A stretch of 56,589 nucleotides of DNA from a phage. The translations under genes and the position numbers were made by a program. Below the pieces are notes generated by a model. That model was not told the DNA's origin. It searched no databases and was given only the letters and a program-made list of their open reading frames with translations. Each line of letters begins with the position of its first letter. Position 1 is the first letter of the stretch. Shown piece by piece: positions 3,237-34,675 of this stretch. The DNA is taken from sequence record PZ445422.1; one strand, 5' to 3'.

Positions 3237-4298
3237 TTAGGAACCCTGATACTCACGAGTGATCAGGCGTGCAACTTTAAGCTGCTTGCGCTCAGGGAAC
3301 GCACGACGCCAGGAATCTTCATGAGCCAGGTTGTTAGTGGTAGCAGCGTTAGACGGACCACCTTTAGCAGTTTGAGCAGCAGCCCAAGCATGGCCAACCG
3401 GATGCAGAATCCATTCAACACGGTTGTGAAGAACTTCTTCACCAGCGCCTTGGTTAGCGGCTTCGTCACGCACCACAGCGGTCGGAACTTTCGGTGATCC
3501 AGCACCCATTGCAGTTGCGCCCGGGCCGAACAGCCAGCTTTCAAACACACCAGTAGACGGATCGTGTGGCATGGAGTCGTCTTCAATAATACGCAGACCC
3601 TGATAATACTCAAACTGAGTTTCACCGCGAGCATCTGGAATGAAGTCGATCAGGTTCAACTGACGCATACGGTTACGAACGGTAGAGTGTACCATAATCA
3701 TAGTCAGACCGCGGGCAGCATCACCCATCGTTGCAGTTGCGTTGATGAAGTTAGACGCGGTAAAGTTGGTCTGGTTATTTACAAAAGAAGAACCAGAGAT
3801 GTCGAAAGTCAAATCGTCACCATGTGATTTCTTCGCATTAGCAAATACACCTTTCCAGGTTGCGATGTATGCAGCTTGCAGACGGCGAACCCACCACGCA
3901 GACACGCGGTTACCGATAGCGGTCATTGGGTCGTTACCAATCAAAGCTGATACCAGATCCGCAGAACCCCAGGATTTTGAACGACTCATACGAACCTGAA
4001 CTTCAGATCCGGTAGTGATGTTAGACGGTTTGGACGGATCGCCTTTATCAACCGCGATATCTTCGTCTTCATCTTTCAGGTCGTTATAGAACGGCTCGTT
4101 AAAAGTCAGACCTGCACCAGCAAGGTTAGCAGATAAACGCTCGTCCATTACGACCGCACCGGATTGAATCAGAGCAGAAAGTTCAGCGGTCTGCGTCTGC
4201 ACATAACCAGTGAAGATCTCAGGGACAATGACATCCTTCAAACGAGTCAGGTCAGTTTCACCACGACCAAATGGCAGAATAATTTTAGATTTAGACAT
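3237..4298 (-). CDS. major capsid protein
   Basis: 353 aa ORF directly downstream of scaffold and portal genes; size and order typical of major capsid; no catalytic motifs. Confidence 0.65.
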   Translation of the reverse strand: MSKSKIILPFGRGETDLTRLKDVIVPEIFTGYVQTQTAELSALIQSGAVVMDERLSANLAGAGLTFNEPFYNDLKDEDEDIAVDKGDPSKPSNITTGSEVQVRMSRSKSWGSADLVSALIGNDPMTAIGNRVSAWWVRRLQAAYIATWKGVFANAKKSHGDDLTFDISGSSFVNNQTNFTASNFINATATMGDAARGLTMIMVHSTVRNRMRQLNLIDFIPDARGETQFEYYQGLRIIEDDSMPHDPSTGVFESWLFGPGATAMGAGSPKVPTAVVRDEAANQGAGEEVLHNRVEWILHPVGHAWAAAQTAKGGPSNAATTNNLAHEDSWRRAFPERKQLKVARLITREYQGS

Positions 4299-4340
4299 AC
4301 TTGTCTCCAGGAAAAGGATTGATTTGTTTACTGTTGGTAG

Positions 4341-4400
4341 CCTTTCCCCGTGGAAGGCTGTTTAGGAACCCGTGTCCCTGATGTGTTGAAACTTAACATC
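4341..4400 (-). promoter_or_regulatory. two stable RNA hairpins between scaffold and capsid genes
   Basis: inverted repeats agccttcc/ggaaggct (4341..4361) and tccctgatgt/acatcaggga (4370..4400) in the 120 nt gap between two co-oriented genes. Confidence 0.3.
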
Positions 4401-4420
4401 AGGGACGTCGGGATGTCAAC

Positions 4421-5293
4421 TTATTTCTTAGCAGGACGTACAGGCTTCAGCGGATCTACGCCATTCTTTTCAGCTAAGCGTTTAGCTAAAGATTGATTAG
4501 TTTTCCAGAGATTCATCTGCTTAGAGATGTTCCAACCGTCGTGACTGTATGGGTCTTCACCGTGATGGCCGCCAGCGCCCGGACCAGATGCACCGCCACC
4601 AGCAGAACCTTCAACCCAGTGAGGACGTTTCGGGAGGATCTCGTTAAGCCAATCCGCCGGGGTTAGGTATGGAGTTACACCAGCCCCATCTTTCGTAACC
4701 ACATTACCGTTCTCGTCGACGGTCATTTGCAACTGTGCATAAGTCACCGCATCTTCGATAGCAGACGGACGCAGCTTAGCACCGGATGCAGCAGCAATAA
4801 CTGCGTCTTTAATCTTCGCTTTAGTTTCGCGAGTGCGGTAGCCTTCAATTTCCTGCTTAACGGAATCGCGTTCAGCTGCTACAGTTTGCAATTGACGCTC
4901 AAGCGGAGCAAGACGGGCTTTAACCATCTTTTCGATGTCTTCCGGAGTACCTTTACCGTTAGCGGCAGCTTCCAGTTGAGGGATACGATCAAGGTCCGCA
5001 AGGACTTCTTCAACCGGACGCCCAAGTGCGCTAATCTGTTGCTTCACCTGGCGATGGTCGTTACGTTCTTTAGCTAACGCACTTTCCAGACGACGAACGC
5101 TATCAGCAGGGGCTACACCTTTAACTTTTGCAAGAACGTATTTACCGCCCTGCTCTGCGTAAAGAGTTGCAAACTCTGCCGGGATCTCTTCCGCAGATGC
5201 ATATTCGTATTCCAGTTCCACATCACCTTCACCGCGAGCGCGTGGATTAATTAAAGCCATACCAACACTAATAGCTACAGAACTCTTTTTCAT
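4421..5293 (-). CDS. scaffolding protein candidate
   Basis: 290 aa, highly charged and helical (AKERNDHRQVKQQISALGR..., LERQLQTVAAERDSVKQEIEGYR), located between portal and capsid. Confidence 0.5.
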   Translation of the reverse strand: MKKSSVAISVGMALINPRARGEGDVELEYEYASAEEIPAEFATLYAEQGGKYVLAKVKGVAPADSVRRLESALAKERNDHRQVKQQISALGRPVEEVLADLDRIPQLEAAANGKGTPEDIEKMVKARLAPLERQLQTVAAERDSVKQEIEGYRTRETKAKIKDAVIAAASGAKLRPSAIEDAVTYAQLQMTVDENGNVVTKDGAGVTPYLTPADWLNEILPKRPHWVEGSAGGGASGPGAGGHHGEDPYSHDGWNISKQMNLWKTNQSLAKRLAEKNGVDPLKPVRPAKK

Positions 5294-9317: not shown

Positions 9318-9651
9318 TGCTTTTCTCCAGTGCTTTTAATTTGTCCTGAAGCAACCTGTGGTTATGTTGCTCACTTTCAATTGCTGAAGCCAATTTTCGA
9401 TAGGATTCAGTATCCTTCTCCCGTTGGGATGCAAGAAATACAACAGCTTCGCCCAGCTTTGCATTGTCCCGTTCTACAACGGTTAGTCTTTGCTCAGCAT
9501 GATTTAAATTAGTTTTGCTGAGCTCGTTCTGTGACCACAAGTATGCAGCCACCCCGCATAAAAACACAACCGCGCCGATCATCAAATACTCGATAAACAG
9601 ACGCGGTTTAGTTTTTATAAAACTGAAGAAGTTATTTAGAATCGTTTTCAT
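9175..9651 (-). CDS. Rz: i-spanin (Rz-like)
   Basis: 158 aa; N-terminal TM segment (LMIGAVVFLCGVAAYLW) then long charged helical region; overlaps Rz1-like ORF and follows holin. Confidence 0.55.
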   Translation of the reverse strand: MKTILNNFFSFIKTKPRLFIEYLMIGAVVFLCGVAAYLWSQNELSKTNLNHAEQRLTVVERDNAKLGEAVVFLASQREKDTESYRKLASAIESEQHNHRLLQDKLKALEKSNADVKAYLNERVPDDLRRLLDGDTTSTTAADSEDKTSGPSVGRMSGS

Positions 9652-9976
9652 GTTTGCAGTCCCCTGAATCGAGTTTAACCCCTGTCCGTGAAGCTATAAG
9701 CGACGTTAGGGCTTTTAGCGTAGCACGTGAACCTGCCCAAGCAAATAGGCCAGCAAGGCCAAAAGCGAACCAAAGGCTGATGTTAAACTCCCTGTAGATC
9801 GCATACATTATAACGCCAAAGAAAGCGGCGGATAAGCCTTCAAGAAACGCAATACTTGCTCGTACTTTCTTACCAGCGTCTATTGTACGCATGACATAAC
9901 CGAGAGCTCCCCCAATGAGGGAGATAAACGCAAACCCCGCTAGAACTGCCCAATGTTCGTTGGGTGAATTGAACAT
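9632..9976 (-). CDS. holin (three predicted TM segments)
   Basis: 114 aa; three hydrophobic stretches and charged C-terminal tail; sits between endolysin candidate and spanins. Confidence 0.55.
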   Translation of the reverse strand: MFNSPNEHWAVLAGFAFISLIGGALGYVMRTIDAGKKVRASIAFLEGLSAAFFGVIMYAIYREFNISLWFAFGLAGLFAWAGSRATLKALTSLIASRTGVKLDSGDCKHENDSK

Positions 9977-10012
9977 GTTCCCTCCAAATAAAAGGGGCTA
10001 ACGCCCCGTCAG

Positions 10013-10450
10013 TTAAAGTACCATTGCAATAGCGCGGTTAATTACGTCGTCGGTATAGGGCATCATGCCATTTTCATGACGAATGATTGCTTTCACCAAT
10101 CCTGACATAATTGACTTGTCGAAGACATTAATTGGATCGTTAGGTTGAACACCAATTGCTTTGGCAACAGAGCGAATATACGCTTCCGTATCGTTTTCGT
10201 TAGGCGGTGCCCAGCGAGCGATAATTTCACGTACAGTGTCGATGTTTTTCTTACCCACATTGGGCAAGCCTTCACGTTTGGTGTAGTTTGTCAGGATTTT
10301 CGCTAACGCACGAATGCCGTAAATCGGTTGCGTGAATTGAGCAAAAGATTTATCGGTTCGCTTATCAGCAGGAACTAAGCCCTGCCAATTATCACCCCAG
10401 CGAATATTGCCTGGATTGTTATTACGAATACCACGAGGTTGAAGTGCCAT
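10013..10450 (-). CDS. putative endolysin / cell wall hydrolase (family not assigned)
   Basis: internal ATG at 10450 with GGAGG RBS (preferred over the 235 aa track ORF); 146 aa starting MALQPRGIRNNNPGNIRWGDNWQG; directly upstream of holin. Confidence 0.4.
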   Translation of the reverse strand: MALQPRGIRNNNPGNIRWGDNWQGLVPADKRTDKSFAQFTQPIYGIRALAKILTNYTKREGLPNVGKKNIDTVREIIARWAPPNENDTEAYIRSVAKAIGVQPNDPINVFDKSIMSGLVKAIIRHENGMMPYTDDVINRAIAMVL

Positions 10451-10532
10451 ATCGAGTTCCTCCGCTTGACATGAACCACTCAAGGGTAACAGAGAAACTT
10501 GATACGGCGCAAGGAGAATTGATCTAAGGAGA

Positions 10533-17064: not shown

Positions 17065-17679
17065 ATGTCTAAAGTAACTCACCGCGAACAGGACAAAATG
17101 CGTTACACCATGAAAACGAATGCACGCCGCGCCCTGAAAACTCGCTGGGGCCAGGTTGCACGCGACGCACACGAACAGTTAATCCATCAGGACGACATCG
17201 GTTTTTACATCGTCGAGAAGGAAGTCCTTCAGGTGCTGCGCGATCACGAAAAAGCTCAGAAGCCGGAGCAGAAAGTCCCAGCACCGACCGCCGCGCCAGC
17301 CGCCAGCGTCTCGGTACTGCGCCCGATGGTAAATCCGGAAATCGTCAAAAGCTGCCTCGAAGCTTTGGAGCAGGAGGAAGAGAAAGATATGAAACACGCA
17401 AAAGCTGCCACGCAGGTTTCTGAAATCAAAATTGAAGAGCCAAAAGCTGCCGCGCCAAAACAGGATGCAAAAGCTGCTCGCTGTGATTTCAAAAATGGCG
17501 CTCGCAAGCCGCTGAAAGGAAAAACCGCCGAAGTGTGGGCAATGGGCGACAAACTTTTATCCGAACTGGGTCGCACTCCGGAGCTGAAAGAAATGAAAGC
17601 TGCAATGCCTTCTTACAACGGGACAACAGTCGCCATTCAGTTCTACGCATGGCGCAAATACAACGGACTGGACGCATAA
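17065..17679 (+). CDS. hypothetical early protein
   Basis: ATG at 17065 with AAAGGAG RBS (internal start of track ORF 17020..17679); 204 aa, charged. Confidence 0.5.
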   Translation: MSKVTHREQDKMRYTMKTNARRALKTRWGQVARDAHEQLIHQDDIGFYIVEKEVLQVLRDHEKAQKPEQKVPAPTAAPAASVSVLRPMVNPEIVKSCLEALEQEEEKDMKHAKAATQVSEIKIEEPKAAAPKQDAKAARCDFKNGARKPLKGKTAEVWAMGDKLLSELGRTPELKEMKAAMPSYNGTTVAIQFYAWRKYNGLDA

Positions 17680-27868: not shown

Positions 27869-28597
27869 ATGGCCATTGAAATTAAAATGTCTTCACAAGT
27901 AGTGCAAGACACAGGCGTTAAAATTCTGGTTTACGGTGAAGCGGGTATGGGTAAAACCAGCCTTGTAGCCACACTACCTAAACCAATTTTGATCAGCGCA
28001 GAGTCCGGTCTGTTATCTATTGCAGCGGAAAACCTTAATCGCGTTTATGGTAACATGGGATTGCCGATCGTTTATGATATCCCAGTTATTGAAGTTAAAT
28101 GTCTGGAGGACGTTGAAGCTGCTTATCAGTGGTGTGTAACTCCAGCTAACCAGCAGTATTTCGATTCTATTGCGCTTGACAGCTTGAGCGAAATTGCTGA
28201 ACAATGTTTAAACAATGCGAAAAAAGGAACAAAAGATCCTCGTCAAGCTTATGGTACTTTGCTTGAAAAGATGCAAGATCTGATCCGTAAATTTCGCGAT
28301 ATTCCTGGCAAACATGTTTATATGTCTGCTAAAATGGGCAAAGACAAAGATGAAGTCTCCGGTGTTACCGCGTATGCTCCATCTATGCCTGGGTCCAAAT
28401 TGGGGCAAATGCTCCCTTACTTCTTCGACGAAGTGTTTCGTCTGAATGTAAATAAGGATCAGCAAGGTAACTCATATCGTTACTTGCAAACTCAACCGGA
28501 CTTTAATACAATCGCTAAGGATCGTTCGGGACGTTTAGATGCGGTTGAAGTCCCACACTTAGGTTCTGTTATCAACAAAATGAAAGGTATCAACTAA
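27869..28597 (+). CDS. RecA-fold ATPase, Sak4-like recombination protein
   Basis: Walker A ILVYGEAGMGKTS near N-terminus; 242 aa; directly upstream of SSB-like gene. Confidence 0.55.
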   Translation: MAIEIKMSSQVVQDTGVKILVYGEAGMGKTSLVATLPKPILISAESGLLSIAAENLNRVYGNMGLPIVYDIPVIEVKCLEDVEAAYQWCVTPANQQYFDSIALDSLSEIAEQCLNNAKKGTKDPRQAYGTLLEKMQDLIRKFRDIPGKHVYMSAKMGKDKDEVSGVTAYAPSMPGSKLGQMLPYFFDEVFRLNVNKDQQGNSYRYLQTQPDFNTIAKDRSGRLDAVEVPHLGSVINKMKGIN

Positions 28598-29460
28598 TGA
28601 CTATGCCAACTAATTTCCACTTTGACGCGAGCAGCTATCAAGCACCTTCTTACGGCGCATTGCCGAAAGGTTGGTATAAAGCAGTAATTGAAGCATCTGA
28701 ATTTAAACCGACCAAAAATGGCGGTATGGCGATCCAGGTAACGTTTAGCATCATTGACGGTTTTGCTAAAGGGCGTAAAATCTTTGCTCGTTATAACGTC
28801 ATCAATGACAACGAAGATACTGTGCGTATCGCTTACGAGCAACTGGGCGCTCTGTCTCATGCAGTTGGTGTGATTCGCTGGGATACTCCTGCTCAACTGC
28901 ATAACATTCCGCTGAACCTGCGTCTGAAAGTTCGTTCTCAGGAAGGCTATGAAGACAGCAACGAGCCGAACGGTTACGCTAACATTAACGATCCGGTTAA
29001 ATATGCGGAAAAAGCAGCAGAGGCTCCATCAATGGGTGCTCCAGCAGTAGCCAACCCGTTTGGTGCAGGTGCGCCAGCACAGCAGCCAACTTTCCCGGGC
29101 GCAGCGCCACAGCAGCCAGCAGCTAACCCGTTTGCTCAGCAACAGCAAGCACCTGTACAGCAACAGCAGCCAGTTCAGCAGCCAGTTCAGCAACCAGCAC
29201 CGCAGCAGGGCGCAGCAGCTCAACCGTGGCAGAACGCAGCACCGCAGCCGTGGGATAATCCTGCTCAAAACGCAGCGCCGCAGCAGCCAGTTCAGCAAGC
29301 TCCGGTACAACAGCCATTAGCACCGGAAGCAGCTCAGCAGCCGTGGGCGCAGCAGGTAGCACAGCCGGGCCAGGCAGCAGCACCACAGCAGCAAGCGCAG
29401 CCACAGCAGCAAGCTGAACCGCATCCGGCACAAGCAGCAGTCCCGCCGTGGCAGCAGTAA
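28597..29460 (+). CDS. single-strand DNA-binding protein candidate (DUF669-like N-domain) with Q/P/A-rich C-terminal tail
   Basis: N-terminal 130 aa globular region; C-terminal 150 aa of QQP/AAP repeats; partner position next to Sak4-like ATPase. Confidence 0.45.
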   Translation: MTMPTNFHFDASSYQAPSYGALPKGWYKAVIEASEFKPTKNGGMAIQVTFSIIDGFAKGRKIFARYNVINDNEDTVRIAYEQLGALSHAVGVIRWDTPAQLHNIPLNLRLKVRSQEGYEDSNEPNGYANINDPVKYAEKAAEAPSMGAPAVANPFGAGAPAQQPTFPGAAPQQPAANPFAQQQQAPVQQQQPVQQPVQQPAPQQGAAAQPWQNAAPQPWDNPAQNAAPQQPVQQAPVQQPLAPEAAQQPWAQQVAQPGQAAAPQQQAQPQQQAEPHPAQAAVPPWQQ

Positions 29461-29486
29461 GTTAACCCTCCCTCTGTAGTGTCCCT

Positions 29487-29513
29487 AAGCCGTCGAAAGA
29501 CGGCTTATTTTTC
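29487..29513 (+). terminator. intrinsic terminator
   Basis: aagccgtc-gaaa-gacggctt stem followed by ATTTTT. Confidence 0.55.
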
Positions 29514-29525
29514 TAAGGTACTCCA

Positions 29526-30434
29526 ATGGCTATTTATATTGCAGAAAAAACACTTCAAGCGATCAATGACGGTGTGCAAAAAGATCAGGGTGGGACTTAC
29601 CGTAAATATCTTGGCGTAGTTATTCCCACAATTGAAGACGCATATCGTCCTGAAAGCGGGAACCGCAGTCACTTAGGTGCTTCCCTTATTGGACAACAAT
29701 GTGCTCGCAAGCTGTTCTACGGGTATCGCTGGGCTACGCGTAAAGAGTTCGATGGACGCCAGCTCCGCCTATTTAACCGCGGACATCTGGAAGAAGCGCG
29801 TTTCATTGCTATGCTTCTTGCGGCAGGTATGCAGGTCTACCAGCAGGATGAAAACGGACACCAGTTCCGTATCAGCGAAGCTGGCGGACACTTTGGCGGT
29901 TCCTGCGATGGTGTGGTTATAGGTTGTCCGGACGTTCAGCCTGGAATGCCCGTGCTTACTGAAATGAAGACTCATAATGATAAGTCTTTCAAGAAGCTGA
30001 AAGCTAAAGGTGTCAAAGAAGCTAAACCTGAGCACTATGTACAGATGAACGTGTACATGCGAAAGCTTGGACTTGGCGCAGCGTTATATCTTGCTGTAAA
30101 CAAGAACGATGATGAAGTTTACGCAGAAATTATTCCATTTGATCCGGTCACTGCGGACATGTATATTGATCGTGGTGTGCAGATTGCTATTGCTACGGAT
30201 ATTCCTGACCGTGCATTCAAAGACTCTACCTTCTTCGAATGCAAATGGTGTGACCACTCCTCATTGTGCTGGCGTAAAACTATGCCGGAAGTAAACTGTC
30301 GCACATGTCAATTTCTTGAGCCAAAAGATGATGGAACATGGTATTGCAATTTCCATTCCGTTGCAGTAGATACTCAGGGTCAAAAAGTTGGTTGTCAAAA
30401 CTATCAAGTAGCTAACTATTACGGGAAAGATTGA
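29526..30434 (+). CDS. PD-(D/E)XK-family nuclease with C-terminal Cys cluster (Cas4/RecB-like exonuclease)
   Basis: 302 aa; C-terminal CKWCDHSSLCWRK...CRTCQF four-Cys cluster typical of Cas4-like nucleases; within recombination gene set. Confidence 0.45.
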   Translation: MAIYIAEKTLQAINDGVQKDQGGTYRKYLGVVIPTIEDAYRPESGNRSHLGASLIGQQCARKLFYGYRWATRKEFDGRQLRLFNRGHLEEARFIAMLLAAGMQVYQQDENGHQFRISEAGGHFGGSCDGVVIGCPDVQPGMPVLTEMKTHNDKSFKKLKAKGVKEAKPEHYVQMNVYMRKLGLGAALYLAVNKNDDEVYAEIIPFDPVTADMYIDRGVQIAIATDIPDRAFKDSTFFECKWCDHSSLCWRKTMPEVNCRTCQFLEPKDDGTWYCNFHSVAVDTQGQKVGCQNYQVANYYGKD

Positions 30435-30436
30435 TT

Positions 30437-32413
30437 ATGCAGCTCCGCGATTATCAACAGGAAGCAGTTTATAGCGTATTCCGCTATTTTGATGCTGAAA
30501 AGGGTAACGCGGGGAACCCTTTGATCCTGTTACCAACAGGGACAGGAAAATCGCTCGTTATCGCGGGGTTCCTCGATCTGCTTTATAAATGGTATCCAAA
30601 CCAGCGCGTAATGATGTTAACTCACGTCAAAGAGTTGATTGCGCAAAACTATGATAAATTAATGAAAGTCTGGCCTGAAGCGCCAGCAGGTATTTACAGC
30701 GCAGGTTTGAAGCGTAAAGAAGTTTATAATCTTATCACATTTGCGGGGATTGCATCCGTTGCTAAGCATCCTAAAAAGTTCGGCAAGGTTGATCTAATCT
30801 TTGTGGATGAAGCGCACCTTATTAGTCCGCGTGATGCAACAATGTATAAGAAGTTCTTTGCAGCATTGCGTGAAGTTAACCCGTATTTAAAAATCATCGG
30901 TCTTACCGCTACACCTTACCGACTGGGTTACGGCTCAATTGTTAAGGAAAACGAAGACGATGATGCGTTATTTGATAAAGTAACGTTTGATGCAACTACC
31001 CCTGAAGCCTTTAACTGGTTCCTGGAGCAAGGCTATTTGCTTCCGGTTGTGCCAAAGCGTACAAAGATGGAGTTGGACCTCAACGGGGTAGGTAAACGCG
31101 GCGGTGAGTTTATCCAGAGTGAGCTGCAAAGCGCGGTGAACCGCGACGATGCAACACTCCGCGCGCTTGAGGAAGCCATTGAATGTGGTGAAGACCGCCA
31201 AAGCTGGCTTATATTTTGTTCTGGCATTGAACACGCTAAAGACGCGTGTGATATGCTGAACGATATGGGTATTAGTTGCGGATGTATCCATTCAAAACTT
31301 GATGCAAAAGAGCGTGACGAAATTATTGAAAAGTTCAAGCGTGGAGAGTTTCGAGCGTTAACGAACAACAACGTCTTAACCACAGGTTTTGACCATCCGA
31401 TGCTCGATCTAATTATCATGCTCCGCCCCACTGCGTCGGCGGTGCTATGGGTTCAGATGCTGGGTCGCGGTACGCGTCCGGTATACGCGGAAGGCTTTGA
31501 TCTTTCCACGCAGGAAGGCCGCTTGCAAGCTATTGCAGCAAGCCCTAAGCAAAACTGCCTTGTACTGGATTTCAGCGGTAATACGCGCCGTTTGGGGCCT
31601 ATTAACGACCCTGTTAAACCTAAGCGCCCGGGCGAAAAAGGTGCTGGTACTGCTCCGGTTAAAGAATGCGATGTGTGCGGGTCGTATAATCATGCATCTT
31701 CTCGCTATTGCGGTGGCTTTGCACCAATCCCTATGGACAGCGTTACACAGGAACAAGTTCAACAATTATATTTGAAGGGATTCAGACTACGTGGAACGGA
31801 TTATGTTAAAGAAGGATTTTGCGGTCATGAGTTTAAGTTCCAGACAAAACTTAAAAAGGCAGCAAGTACCGAAGCATTAATCAAGCAGGACATTCCGGTA
31901 GTTGAAGACTTTAAAGTTACGCATGTGACTTATGCGAAGCACACTAAACGCAATGACAGCTCCAAACCTCCAACAATGAAGGTGACTTATTATTGCGGCA
32001 GTAAAATATTTAGCGAATGGGTAGCTTTGCTGCATGGCGACTGGGCTGGTCGTAAAGCGGTTGCATGGTGGAAAAAAAGGACGCATCTTCCTTTACCACA
32101 AACTATTGAAGAAGCTCTTGATGTTGCTGCAATGCTCAAAACACCGAAATACATCAAAGTTCATACTAATAAGAAATGGCCTGAGATATTGAACTATGAT
32201 TATGATGGTACGTGTTTCGGTAAGTTTGAAGCTCCACAGGACGAAGAAGCTATTCAGGTTAAAGTATACGGGCAGGATGGAACAACCGAAGGTCCAAGCT
32301 ATAACGATGATGTGAGCTGGGATGATATTGTTTCACAGAATACGCAAGGTATAACGGTGAATAATGTGGTTAATCCTGTACAAGTAGATGATCCGGATTA
32401 CGTTCCGTTCTAA
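30437..32413 (+). CDS. superfamily 2 DNA helicase (DEAH-box)
   Basis: Walker A LLPTGTGKS, motif II IFVDEAHL, helicase C-terminal arginine block MLGRGTRP; Cys-rich insert CDVCGSYNHASSRYCGG. Confidence 0.75.
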   Translation: MQLRDYQQEAVYSVFRYFDAEKGNAGNPLILLPTGTGKSLVIAGFLDLLYKWYPNQRVMMLTHVKELIAQNYDKLMKVWPEAPAGIYSAGLKRKEVYNLITFAGIASVAKHPKKFGKVDLIFVDEAHLISPRDATMYKKFFAALREVNPYLKIIGLTATPYRLGYGSIVKENEDDDALFDKVTFDATTPEAFNWFLEQGYLLPVVPKRTKMELDLNGVGKRGGEFIQSELQSAVNRDDATLRALEEAIECGEDRQSWLIFCSGIEHAKDACDMLNDMGISCGCIHSKLDAKERDEIIEKFKRGEFRALTNNNVLTTGFDHPMLDLIIMLRPTASAVLWVQMLGRGTRPVYAEGFDLSTQEGRLQAIAASPKQNCLVLDFSGNTRRLGPINDPVKPKRPGEKGAGTAPVKECDVCGSYNHASSRYCGGFAPIPMDSVTQEQVQQLYLKGFRLRGTDYVKEGFCGHEFKFQTKLKKAASTEALIKQDIPVVEDFKVTHVTYAKHTKRNDSSKPPTMKVTYYCGSKIFSEWVALLHGDWAGRKAVAWWKKRTHLPLPQTIEEALDVAAMLKTPKYIKVHTNKKWPEILNYDYDGTCFGKFEAPQDEEAIQVKVYGQDGTTEGPSYNDDVSWDDIVSQNTQGITVNNVVNPVQVDDPDYVPF

Positions 32414-32428
32414 TTGACTTCAACATCT

Positions 32429-32460
32429 AATGCCCCTACTATTGGGGCATTACTTATTTA
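32429..32460 (+). terminator. intrinsic terminator
   Basis: aatgcccc-tactatt-ggggcatt stem followed by T-rich tract. Confidence 0.5.
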
Positions 32461-32472
32461 TAGGGGATTGCA

Positions 32473-32967
32473 ATGTACGTCCTAATTGATACAGATAAAT
32501 TTGAACTCTTGGCAAAGCACCCCAATTGGCTGACACTACACCAACTTGGAATTATTTGTTGCCCTGAGTCAACACTGGTAACACCAGTAGACGATTTACA
32601 CGATCTTGAAGATGTTGATCTTCAAATGCTTTATATTAACTTGACAGAAAATTTAGGAGCGGCACCTTATGAACGGGAAATCGTTGAGCGCATTTTGTTT
32701 GATTACTTTACGCAACTTCCAGAAACAATCATGGATCACGCCCAAATCAGCGCACAAGCCGAATTCTGTGTGGAATACGATATCCAAGGCTTTTGCTCAC
32801 CTCAAATTGGGCAATACGTTCCGTCAATGGATGAAGGACTTTGGAAACCTGCCCGTGTCAAATACGATGCTGAACGGGAGGGTGGTATTATTTCCGGTGC
32901 CAGGGTCGTTTGTGAGCAACCCGCATTGCAAGCTGCATGGACACCGGGCAGAGGGGCAAAGAGTTAG
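32473..32967 (+). CDS. hypothetical protein
   Basis: 164 aa; AGGGGA RBS. Confidence 0.5.
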   Translation: MYVLIDTDKFELLAKHPNWLTLHQLGIICCPESTLVTPVDDLHDLEDVDLQMLYINLTENLGAAPYEREIVERILFDYFTQLPETIMDHAQISAQAEFCVEYDIQGFCSPQIGQYVPSMDEGLWKPARVKYDAEREGGIISGARVVCEQPALQAAWTPGRGAKS

Positions 32968-33094
32968 TAAGTTCTAAGCTTGATCAAAAATATTTTTAAA
33001 AATATTCAGATAAGGGGTTGCGTGTCACAAAATCCTTTGGTACATTTAACCCCGTTGGTAACAAACGAACCCATAACAATTCGGAGTGAAGAGA

Positions 33095-33898
33095 ATGAGC
33101 AACATTGAAGATAAAAAAGCCGCTGCCGCTGCTGCCGCTGCTGCCGCTGCAAAATCTGCTAAACCTGCAAAGAAAGAAGCTACTGTGAATGATGCAGAAG
33201 CTAAGAAAGCCGCTGCCGCTGAAGCTGCACGCGTAGCAAAAGAGAAAAAAGAAGCAGAGAAAAAAGCTGCCGCTGAAAAGAAACAAGCTGAAATCCGCAC
33301 TGAAGCGGAAAACAAATTTAATGCGATTGCTAACGCTGCTGAAATCCTGAAAAACTCTTTGGCTACCGTCACCGACGAAAGCACTGTTGAACAAATCACG
33401 GAAGCAGAAACTCAGGGATCTGCAAACCTGAAGACCATTAAAGAAGCTCTGAAAGAGCTGAAAGCTGTCGTTAAGAAGTCTAAAGGTGAAGACCTGTCCG
33501 GTGCTGTAACTTCTGCCCAGGGTCTGGTGGATGGTCTGGAAGCTACTATTAAAGGCTTCAAAGACAAGATCCGTGCTGCAAAACAGGCAGAAAAAGAAGC
33601 GGAAAAAGCACGCGCTAAAGAGCTCCGCGAGAAAGAAAAAGAAGCTAATCGTATGCCGGAACAGAACGGTGTTCGTCGCCCACAACCGGAAACTTCCTGC
33701 GGTCGTGCCTGGGCCCTGATGGACCAGATTAGCGCTACGCTGGGTCAGCCTGCTCCGATCTCTTATGTTCTGAACCTGGCTGGTCGCCATGGTCTGAACG
33801 AAGATACCGTTAAAACCCAATATGCACGCTGGAAGAAATTTAATGGTGTAACTGGTCGCGTACCTGTGCCAGTACCGGAAGCTTTGAACGGCTTGTAA
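33095..33898 (+). CDS. Ala/Lys-rich histone H1-like protein with distinct C-terminal domain
   Basis: ATG at 33095 with GGAGTGAAGAGA RBS; N-terminal two-thirds is KAAAAAAAAAAAK / AEKKAAAEKK low complexity; C-terminal 80 aa globular. Confidence 0.5.
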   Translation: MSNIEDKKAAAAAAAAAAAKSAKPAKKEATVNDAEAKKAAAAEAARVAKEKKEAEKKAAAEKKQAEIRTEAENKFNAIANAAEILKNSLATVTDESTVEQITEAETQGSANLKTIKEALKELKAVVKKSKGEDLSGAVTSAQGLVDGLEATIKGFKDKIRAAKQAEKEAEKARAKELREKEKEANRMPEQNGVRRPQPETSCGRAWALMDQISATLGQPAPISYVLNLAGRHGLNEDTVKTQYARWKKFNGVTGRVPVPVPEALNGL

Positions 33899-33923
33899 TA
33901 TCAAAACATATCACGTTATAATG

Positions 33924-33950
33924 AAGGCGCCCAATGAGGCGCTTTCTTTT
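33924..33950 (+). terminator. intrinsic terminator
   Basis: aaggcgcc-caatga-ggcgcttt stem followed by T-rich tract. Confidence 0.5.
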
Positions 33951-33967
33951 TCACTAGAGGATTTAAG

Positions 33968-34675
33968 ATGAATATTAATCAACAAGCTCCCGAGTCTCGT
34001 TCTAAAGAAAACGATATGTATTTAGACGTGCATTCGGTATTCTCTACCATTCAGGGTGAAGGTCCATTCTGCGGTCAACCTGCGGTATTTGTGCGCCTTG
34101 CTGGATGTAACCTGCAATGCCCGGGCTGCGACACGGATTATACTGTTGGTCGTTCTCTTTACCACATTGTTGATATCATGCGTTTAATCGAAAGCCGTAA
34201 GCTGGAATCAGGCAATAGCACCTCACTTGTGGTTATTAGTGGGGGTGAACCGTTCCGTCAGCAAATTAACCCGTTTATTGAACAACTGTTATCGCGCGGG
34301 TATCTTGTACAGATTGAAACGAATGGGTCTATGCCTTTACCTAAGAACTTTTCCCAGCTACCTGTCATTGTATGCAGTCCTAAGACTTCAAAGATTCATC
34401 CTTCTGTGCTGTACCGCGCTAATGCATTTAAATATGTACTTAAAGCGTGCTGTGTAAACGTGGAAGATGGTTTGCCTCTTCAAGCATTAGATCATCAAGC
34501 TACGCCATTTATCGCTAGACCTCCGAAGGGGTTCAAGGGTAAGATATATTTACAGCCAATGGACGAGCAGGATGAAGATCTTAACCACAGTAACATCAAA
34601 GCGGTTGTCCAAAGCTGTATGAAACACGGGTACACGTTGCAGCTTCAGGTTCACAAATATATCGGGGTGGAATAA
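33968..34675 (+). CDS. queE: 7-carboxy-7-deazaguanine synthase (radical SAM)
   Basis: FSTIQGEGPFCGQPAVFVRLAGCNLQCPGCDTDYT matches the QueE N-terminal Cx14CxxC radical-SAM signature; AGAGGA RBS. Confidence 0.85.
   Translation: MNINQQAPESRSKENDMYLDVHSVFSTIQGEGPFCGQPAVFVRLAGCNLQCPGCDTDYTVGRSLYHIVDIMRLIESRKLESGNSTSLVVISGGEPFRQQINPFIEQLLSRGYLVQIETNGSMPLPKNFSQLPVIVCSPKTSKIHPSVLYRANAFKYVLKACCVNVEDGLPLQALDHQATPFIARPPKGFKGKIYLQPMDEQDEDLNHSNIKAVVQSCMKHGYTLQLQVHKYIGVE

Follow-up and report, generated by a model that had tools for sequence, protein, structure and literature searches.

bas21_0049 of Escherichia phage GottfriedDienst belongs to a widespread, uncharacterised phage protein family and may encode an abundant DNA-associated protein of the replication module

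The gene bas21_0049 lies at positions 33095 to 33898 of the 56,589-nucleotide phage DNA of sequence record PZ445422.1, the whole of which is referred to here as the window. By megablast, the window corresponds to the entire genome of Escherichia phage GottfriedDienst (Bas21, MZ501071.1; Queuovirinae, Seuratvirus), to which it is 100% identical once it is reverse-complemented and rotated. We show here that bas21_0049 is a real, conserved gene and that its family is real, widespread and uncharacterised; its domain architecture, the limits of its transcription unit, its codon bias and its synteny are likewise established. What its product does is judged from sequence and predicted structure. We favour a tentative reading, quite possible if short of probable, in which the protein is made in large amounts, stays out of the virion and associates with DNA as part of the phage replication module; the abundance, the DNA binding and the architectural role are all inferred. 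The gene and the parts of its product are as follows.

33095..33898, + strand: coding sequence bas21_0049 (phrog_11298), from the ATG at 33095 to the TAA at 33896-33898; 267 amino acids (aa), 28.5 kDa, pI 9.4
33083..33086, + strand: Shine-Dalgarno sequence GGAG, 8 nt before the ATG of bas21_0049 (direct sequence reading)
33095..33304, + strand: residues 1-70, Ala/Lys/Glu-rich low-complexity segment (composition, AlphaFold2, conservation)
33119..33150, + strand: GCC/GCT tandem codon repeat encoding poly-Ala A9-A19, 11 Ala (Tandem Repeats Finder, TRF)
33305..33574, + strand: residues 71-160, core of a predicted antiparallel three-helix bundle (AlphaFold2; predicted local distance difference test, pLDDT, 85-93)
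33575..33652, + strand: residues 161-186, K/E/A/R-rich connecting helix, a short second low-complexity stretch (composition, AlphaFold2)
33653..33865, + strand: residues 187-257, conserved C-terminal domain (AlphaFold2 models, alignments, profile)

The product is recorded as a "hypothetical protein" in GenBank MZ501071.1, and we found no characterisation of it in the literature, including work on Bas21 and Queuovirinae transcriptomics. In the initial annotation, the product was described as an Ala/Lys-rich, histone H1-like protein. A word-indexed search returned 225 homologues at an E value of ≤1e-3. Furthermore, the protein gives a full-length profile match to phrog_11298, a family listed in PHROG with function unknown (E = 3.1e-112, residues 16-267). 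The GenBank start is an in-frame GTG at 33086, which yields 270 aa. Because this GTG overlaps the Shine-Dalgarno sequence and the close homologues, annotated nearly all with 266-267 aa, begin MSNIEDKK, 33095 is the better start. The GTG start (270 aa) is used by the BASEL phage records Bas21 and Bas22, and nearly all other records use the ATG 9 bases downstream.

The best-conserved part of the protein is its C terminus, mean identity to distant full-length homologues rising from 25% in residues 1-70 to 35% in residues 71-160, 51% in residues 161-186 and 66% in residues 187-257. In a full-length AlphaFold2 model built with 34 full-length homologues (mean pLDDT 83.6), the last of these segments is predicted to form a β-hairpin (PEQNGVRRPxP) followed by three helices (201-216, 222-232 and 236-249) that resemble a helix-turn-helix (HTH), and the domain modelled by itself reaches a pLDDT of 80. 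The compact C-terminal domain that was proposed to follow the low-complexity segment is therefore recovered. Its invariant or near-invariant residues are P188, Q190, N191, G192, R195, P196, C202, G203, W206, D210, Y243, A244, R245, W246, F249, G251, G254 and R255; the motifs QNGxRRP, W206 and Y243-A-R-W-K-K-F-x-G-x-x-G-R255 are all invariant or nearly so, and the conserved residues give the domain (pI 9.5) a basic hairpin and a third helix that is basic and aromatic. That the invariant residues of the hairpin (Q190, N191, G192, R195 and P196) and of helix 3 (Y243, R245, W246, F249 and R255) are basic or aromatic in character argues for an association with DNA.

Comparisons with described families gave no match. 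A Foldseek search of the PDB gave nothing below an E value of 0.66, the weak and non-significant neighbours including sigma region 4, LexA, KorA, Mor and homeodomains, and a structure search of BFVD returned only uncharacterised members of the same family. Sequence and profile searches of the PDB found no relative, hmmscan against Pfam gave no match for the bas21_0049 protein at an E value of ≤1, and PADLOC gave no defence-system match. When the distant members were included, Pfam and NCBIfam still assigned no family, the best Pfam E value of 0.017 falling short of the cut-off. The Linker_histone family (PF00538) was not matched at an E value of ≤1, and hhalign of the domain profile against the globular domain of chicken H5 gave a probability of 0.1%, so homology to linker histones was rejected. 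RecX (PF02631) was likewise not matched in Pfam, and hhalign of the domain profile against Escherichia coli RecX gave a probability of 1.7%. By these comparisons, the domain belongs to no described family and may be placed only loosely in the HTH/winged-helix class.

A profile of the C-terminal domain nevertheless matched 1,964 protein clusters (50% identity) at an E value of ≤1e-3, 867 of them at ≤1e-10; wherever the source of a cluster was examined, it was a phage or phage-like contig. When one genome of each bacterial species was scanned with a pattern, a search of limited sensitivity, only eight hits were returned, mostly on phage-sized contigs (about 56 kb) of metagenome-assembled genomes, with no homologues seen in cellular genomes or dpd islands. 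Relatives that match over the full length have 250-300 aa and come from Seuratvirus-, Nonagvirus- and Vid5-like phages; in the alignments, only they contain the region of residues 71-160. In many shorter relatives (160-200 aa), the similarity is limited to the C-terminal 75 residues (50-68% identity), which follow a K/A/E-rich stretch. Others carry two or three tandem copies of the domain (P0121, P0244, P0122 and P0123), place it behind a Zn-ribbon-like N terminus (L163, 9557-10204) or, in the distant members P0238 and L156 (open reading frame [ORF] 9412-10521), join it to strongly basic K/P/A/V-rich tails, for example KKPAKKAVNKPAPKTSPKKVVSKPAPKAKAKTKP. In the window itself, a second copy of the domain is encoded in the early region:

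17065..17679, + strand: paralogue bas21_0072, 204 aa, with the same C-terminal domain (BLASTP E = 2e-6; domain hidden Markov model E = 2.8e-11)

Both paralogues match phrog_21588. Such modular use (tandem copies, K/P/A tails, a Zn-ribbon-like fusion and a second copy in the genome) typifies nucleic-acid-binding domains and is thus in line with DNA association. The N-terminal segment of bas21_0072 resembles the N termini of the distant members P0150, P0208 and P0260.

A further line of evidence comes from the way in which the gene is organised and encoded. bas21_0049 and the ORF upstream of it lie between two terminator-like hairpins, each combined with a promoter-like site:

32414..32442, + strand: sigma-70-like promoter TTGACT-17-TACTAT, overlapping the hairpin 32428-32452
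32428..32452, + strand: terminator-like hairpin behind the helicase gene, upstream boundary of the unit, overlapping the promoter-like site 32414-32442
32473..32967, + strand: upstream ORF, 164 aa, phrog_7864 (function unknown), in the same terminator-bounded unit as bas21_0049
33893..33922, + strand: sigma-70-like promoter TTGTAA-18-TATAAT (10/12 matches), overlapping the stop codon and abutting the terminator hairpin
33923..33953, + strand: intrinsic terminator that ends the transcription unit, with hairpin 33923-33946 (9-bp stem, 6 G-C pairs) and T-run

The initial annotation had given the reading frame 33095-33898 its own ribosome binding site and terminator, and both are present, as GGAG before the ATG and as the hairpin 33923-33946 with its T-run. 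The annotation of the sister phage SA126VB, made independently, has the same promoter and terminators at both places. Of 68 non-redundant related loci, 32 have a terminator-like hairpin behind the homologue, against about 7% expected by chance from scans of shuffled sequences, and the untranslated gap between the homologue and queE in these loci is mostly about 60-130 nt (58-693 nt overall). The que operon is probably transcribed from the promoter at 33893-33922. Promoter and terminator overlap at either end of the unit, with the -10 element in the hairpin loop at one end and abutting the 5' arm at the other. With this arrangement, incoming transcripts would terminate at the overlaps, and locally started ones, which would not contain the full hairpin, would read on.

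The codon adaptation index (CAI) for E. coli, computed with the Sharp-Li weights, is 0.567 for bas21_0049, which ranks first among 84 ORFs (genome median, 0.298). It ties with the gene for the major head protein (phrog_247; 3237-4298, - strand) and lies above those for the DUF669-type single-stranded DNA-binding protein (SSB; 28597-29460, + strand; 0.531) and the head scaffold (0.461); the value for the C-terminal domain alone is 0.523, and that for bas21_0072 is 0.457. Only two other ORFs exceed 0.53, those for SSB and the major head protein, so that codon adaptation is concentrated in a few presumably stoichiometric proteins. The codon adaptation suggests that the bas21_0049 protein is abundant, which fits a stoichiometric DNA binder. 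Taken together, the top codon adaptation, the fixed position in the replication module and the separate transcription unit argue for the reading given above. The non-virion part of it is supported by the virion proteomes of Vid5 (11 proteins; PMC6266253) and R7M (14 proteins; PMC8265664), since they list only structural-module proteins and the homologue is not reported in either.

The N-terminal part of the protein differs from the description that was first given of it. The repeat is indeed encoded by GCC/GCT codons, and TRF detected a period of 6 (GCCGCT) at 33119-33150 and a period of 9, with 100% matches, at 33122-33150. When its length was compared among Seuratvirus-like phages, the repeat was found to be kept, its length varying from 7 to 11 Ala and mostly stable at 11. 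However, low complexity does not extend over the N-terminal two-thirds of the protein, as was claimed, and is limited to about the first quarter; residues 71-160 are of ordinary composition and complexity, conserved and modelled with a pLDDT of 85-93. Residues 1-70 consist of 40% A, 21% K and 14% E. In the AlphaFold2 model, a poly-Ala helix (residues 4-20) and a disordered stretch (residues 22-30) precede a long charged helix, with a pLDDT of 46-84 over residues 1-70; the long helices span residues 32-90, 98-128 and 132-184, and their central parts are predicted to form the antiparallel three-helix bundle. A single-alpha-helix (ER/K) character of the charged segments was considered and rejected, as opposite-charge i/i+4 pairs were not enriched over shuffled sequences (7 versus 4.7±1.7 and 2 versus 4.6±1.6).

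On this basis, the proposed resemblance to H1 and AlgP holds in part. As in the linker histones H1/H5, AlgP, Hc1 and the mycobacterial HupB tail, a compact domain, in Bas21 predicted to be loosely of winged-helix class, is combined with an Ala/Lys-rich low-complexity extension, and true K/P/A tails are present in P0238 and L156, far nearer to H1/AlgP tails than anything in the Bas21 protein. However, homology is absent, and the tails of H1 and AlgP have a strongly basic composition that includes Pro, whereas the Bas21 tail is N-terminal, predicted to be helical and 17% acidic (D/E). With 17 K/R against 12 D/E (net charge, +5) and a single Pro, residues 1-70 are near charge balance and therefore unlike the tail of H1 or AlgP. 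The H1-like idea survives only as an architectural analogy. A similar limit applies to TolA domain II: the N-terminal segment of the Bas21 protein has the same AEKKAAAEKK-type composition and is predicted to form a long helix, but the protein contains neither a membrane anchor nor TolA domain III, so the likeness is compositional only. The name "membrane protein involved in colicin uptake" given to two homologues by JGI (Joint Genome Institute) is due to this TolA-like composition.

In the mechanism that we propose, the C-terminal basic β-hairpin and HTH-like three-helix bundle would act as a binding module, most likely for double-stranded DNA, and the charged Ala/Lys/Glu helix at the N terminus, elaborated in Seuratvirus to a three-helix bundle, would serve as an arm for self-association or spacing. 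Expressed jointly with the upstream ORF from its own terminator-bounded unit, the protein could reach a high copy number and cover phage (or host) DNA, or organise it, while this DNA is replicated and transcribed. Its role may then be like that of phi29 p6, SPO1 TF1 or plasmid KfrA in their systems, with kinship to none of them. Both p6 and TF1 are small, very abundant early phage proteins that are encoded with replication genes. They coat or bend the DNA of the phage, with effects on its replication as well as its transcription, and TF1 has a preference for the modified DNA of its own phage, which contains hydroxymethyluracil (hmU). In Bas21, bas21_0049 and the SSB gene are the replication-module genes with the best codon adaptation, which recalls p6 and p5 of phi29. 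There is no kinship in sequence or fold, as TF1 is of HU type and p6 has another fold, whereas the Bas21 protein has a predicted HTH-like domain with a helical arm. KfrA of IncP plasmids is an autoregulatory protein with a winged-HTH DNA-binding domain and a long alanine-rich coiled-coil tail. The Bas21 protein likewise combines a small domain, predicted to be HTH-like, with a long polar, Ala-rich helical region that may multimerise; however, the HTH is N-terminal in KfrA and C-terminal in the Bas21 protein, KfrA is plasmid-borne, and the KfrA_N family (PF11740) gave no Pfam match to the Bas21 protein at an E value of ≤1.

Several points weigh against this reading. The CAI is a proxy only and, in a genome of 45% GC, is inflated for Lys/Glu-rich genes by AAA and GAA codons, although the C-terminal domain taken alone still reaches 0.523. 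The N-terminal tail is nearly charge-neutral and hence not an obvious DNA-condensing tail. We found no DNA-binding experiment on any member of the family and no transcriptomic or proteomic data from infected cells in the literature.

The database names of homologues imply a different function, namely, that of a sequence-specific transcription factor that activates or represses middle or late phage genes, which we consider unlikely. Among the source names in the protein collection, only "hypothetical protein" and "transcriptional activator" occurred; the latter is the database name of the Vid5, R7M, CA8 and CAjan homologues, and the CAjan, phiG7 and SA126VB records carry an AraC/FtrA-type name ("FtrA domain-containing protein"). 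The predicted HTH-like fold of the C-terminal domain and the weak Foldseek neighbours, which include regulators such as LexA and KorA, would suit such a factor, as would the separate expression unit. However, the names are unsupported, as no AraC/FtrA or other family was matched, and neither Pfam nor NCBIfam showed an AraC-type HTH or a DJ-1/PfpI-like domain in the bas21_0049 protein or its distant members. Moreover, a codon adaptation at the top of the genome is unusual for a regulator, and the variants with tandem domains and basic tails look more like general binders.

Somewhat less likely again, in our view, is that the winged-helix-like domain is a protein-protein adaptor, with the arm as a spacer, for the helicase, the Sak4-type recombinase or SSB, the clamp, the polymerase, or host RecA or RNA polymerase. 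The gene lies beside that of the helicase and near the Sak4, SSB and exonuclease genes, and family members with three copies of the domain recall the build of RecX, a regulator of RecA with three tandem three-helix repeats. Further, a homologue of the upstream ORF, for which no Pfam, PDB or PADLOC match was found, is fused N-terminally to bas21_0049-type proteins in distant phages (P0089, P0171, P0186, P0192, P0213, P0257 and P0177), which suggests that the two products work together. In L074, L106 and L113, the gene in the slot of the upstream ORF itself ends with a copy of the domain. Against an adaptor function stand the low hhalign probability for RecX, which has no counterpart of the β-hairpin or the QNGxRRP and YARWKKF motifs of the Bas21 domain, the basic and aromatic nature of the conserved surface residues, as expected for nucleic-acid contact, and the basic K/P/A tails of some relatives.

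The near-constant position of the gene by the 7-deazaguanine cassette makes its product the obvious first candidate for a reader of the modification, although the present evidence points away from this. An accessory role in the 7-deazaguanine system, in which the protein would either aid DpdA, as DpdB does for bacterial DpdA, or prefer DNA that contains 2'-deoxy-preQ0 (dPreQ0), as TF1 prefers hmU DNA, is improbable. The gene is directly upstream of the modification cluster, as was first noted: queE starts at 33968 and is followed by queC, yhhQ, queD, folE and dpdA. Of the non-redundant related viral loci, 122 extend far enough downstream for a comparison, and in 112 of these queE starts within 1.5 kb downstream of the homologue. 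The order Cas4-like exonuclease, superfamily 2 (SF2) helicase, (upstream ORF), bas21_0049 homologue, queE-queC-queD-folE, dpdA, clamp and PolA is conserved, even in cultured phages as remote as Stenotrophomonas Bhz54, Rhizobium RHEph04, Achromobacter ART and Vibrio CA8, although Synechococcus Ssp-JY38 has its matching gene downstream of PolA. The place of the gene in the replication module, behind exonuclease, helicase and (upstream ORF) and before clamp and PolA, is the same in about 150 loci. A tblastn search of 50,697 phage records found the domain in 150 and DpdA in 237, and the two counts are nearly equal in cultured Gram-negative siphophages (domain/DpdA: Escherichia, 41/41; Pseudomonas, 31/32; Vibrio, 23/23; Rhizobium, 13/14), which favours an accessory role. 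In mycobacteriophages the dpdA-like gene adjoins a gene for a ParB-like nuclease domain (e.g., MH727546.1 and MN617843.1), which recalls the bacterial DpdA-DpdB pair; in the Queuovirinae-like clade dpdA has no ParB-like neighbour, and this lack also counts in favour of an accessory.

However, a strong terminator and a separate promoter stand between bas21_0049 and queE, and co-occurrence of the homologue with dpdA/que genes is not obligate. Homologues stay in the helicase-adjacent slot where que and dpdA are lacking: L074 has helicase, paralogue, bas21_0049 homologue, a 154-aa ORF and clamp, with no que or dpdA in the 20 kb of sequence covered; in L086/L087 a version with three domains precedes the clamp, with neither que nor dpdA in that slot; in L156 the next gene after the basic-tail version encodes a different DNA polymerase, and there is no que/dpdA cassette; and the homologue of L162 has neither there. 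Of these genes, L085 has only a dpdA-like one, and paralogues occur elsewhere in genomes. Conversely, DpdA phages of Mycobacterium (56 records), Cellulophaga (7 records), Arthrobacter and Streptococcus (Dp-1) showed no domain match among the organism groups and 60 sampled records listed. Judged from the record counts and the que-less loci, what the gene follows is a phage lineage with its replication module, and not DpdA itself. A homologue, 58% identical in the domain, is also present in phage 9g. In E. coli, the dpdA gene of 9g inserts dPreQ0 into plasmid DNA on its own; combined with gat-queC, it yields 2'-deoxyarchaeosine (dG+) at a level of about 18% of guanines, and further phage genes are not needed for either (PMC6884629), whereas bacterial DpdA requires DpdB (PMC10516641). 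In addition, the modification cluster published for CAjan (28,621-34,560) ends shortly before the homologue (PMC7544227). The earlier idea that the protein protects or marks the genome around modification is thus weakened by the terminator insulation, the que-less relatives, the DpdA lineages that lack the domain and the plasmid data for 9g.

A dedicated chromatin-like protein for 7-deazaguanine-modified genomes, which would be abundant, recognise or organise dPreQ0-DNA and be co-inherited with the dpdA/que cassette across the Queuovirinae-like superclade, is more doubtful still. By analogy to SPO1 TF1 and hmU DNA, such a protein could tell phage from host DNA or tune the sites of DpdA. Finally, a virion, scaffold or decoration protein is very improbable: the product is helical, charged and encoded with high codon adaptation, like scaffolding proteins, and the CSP1C homologue is named "outer capsid protein" in one database record, but the gene is placed among the replication genes, well away from those for the head, a separate scaffold gene (phrog_206, 4421-5293) sits beside that of the major head protein (both within 3237-5293), and the homologue is reported in neither of the virion proteomes, Vid5 and R7M.

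If the reading as an abundant DNA-associated protein is correct, a very large group of siphophages, among them the Queuovirinae and their relatives with Escherichia, Pseudomonas, Vibrio, Rhizobium or marine hosts, encodes its own abundant DNA-organising protein, whose characteristic domain is absent from public family libraries even though it accounts for about 2,000 protein clusters at 50% identity. The reading would also put a name and a testable function to a gene that ranks among the best-expressed of those listed as "hypothetical" in these phages, several BASEL model phages included, and correct the misleading names "FtrA transcriptional activator" and "outer capsid protein".

A 302-aa ORF on the opposite strand (32996-33904, - strand) spans the whole of bas21_0049 and was rejected as a real gene, being a codon-aligned shadow ORF. 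This frame is open only through the absence of TTA, CTA and TCA codons from the sense gene. Most homologues likewise have an open antisense frame (median, 95% of gene length), but in the near-identical relatives L005, L006 and L008 it is broken.

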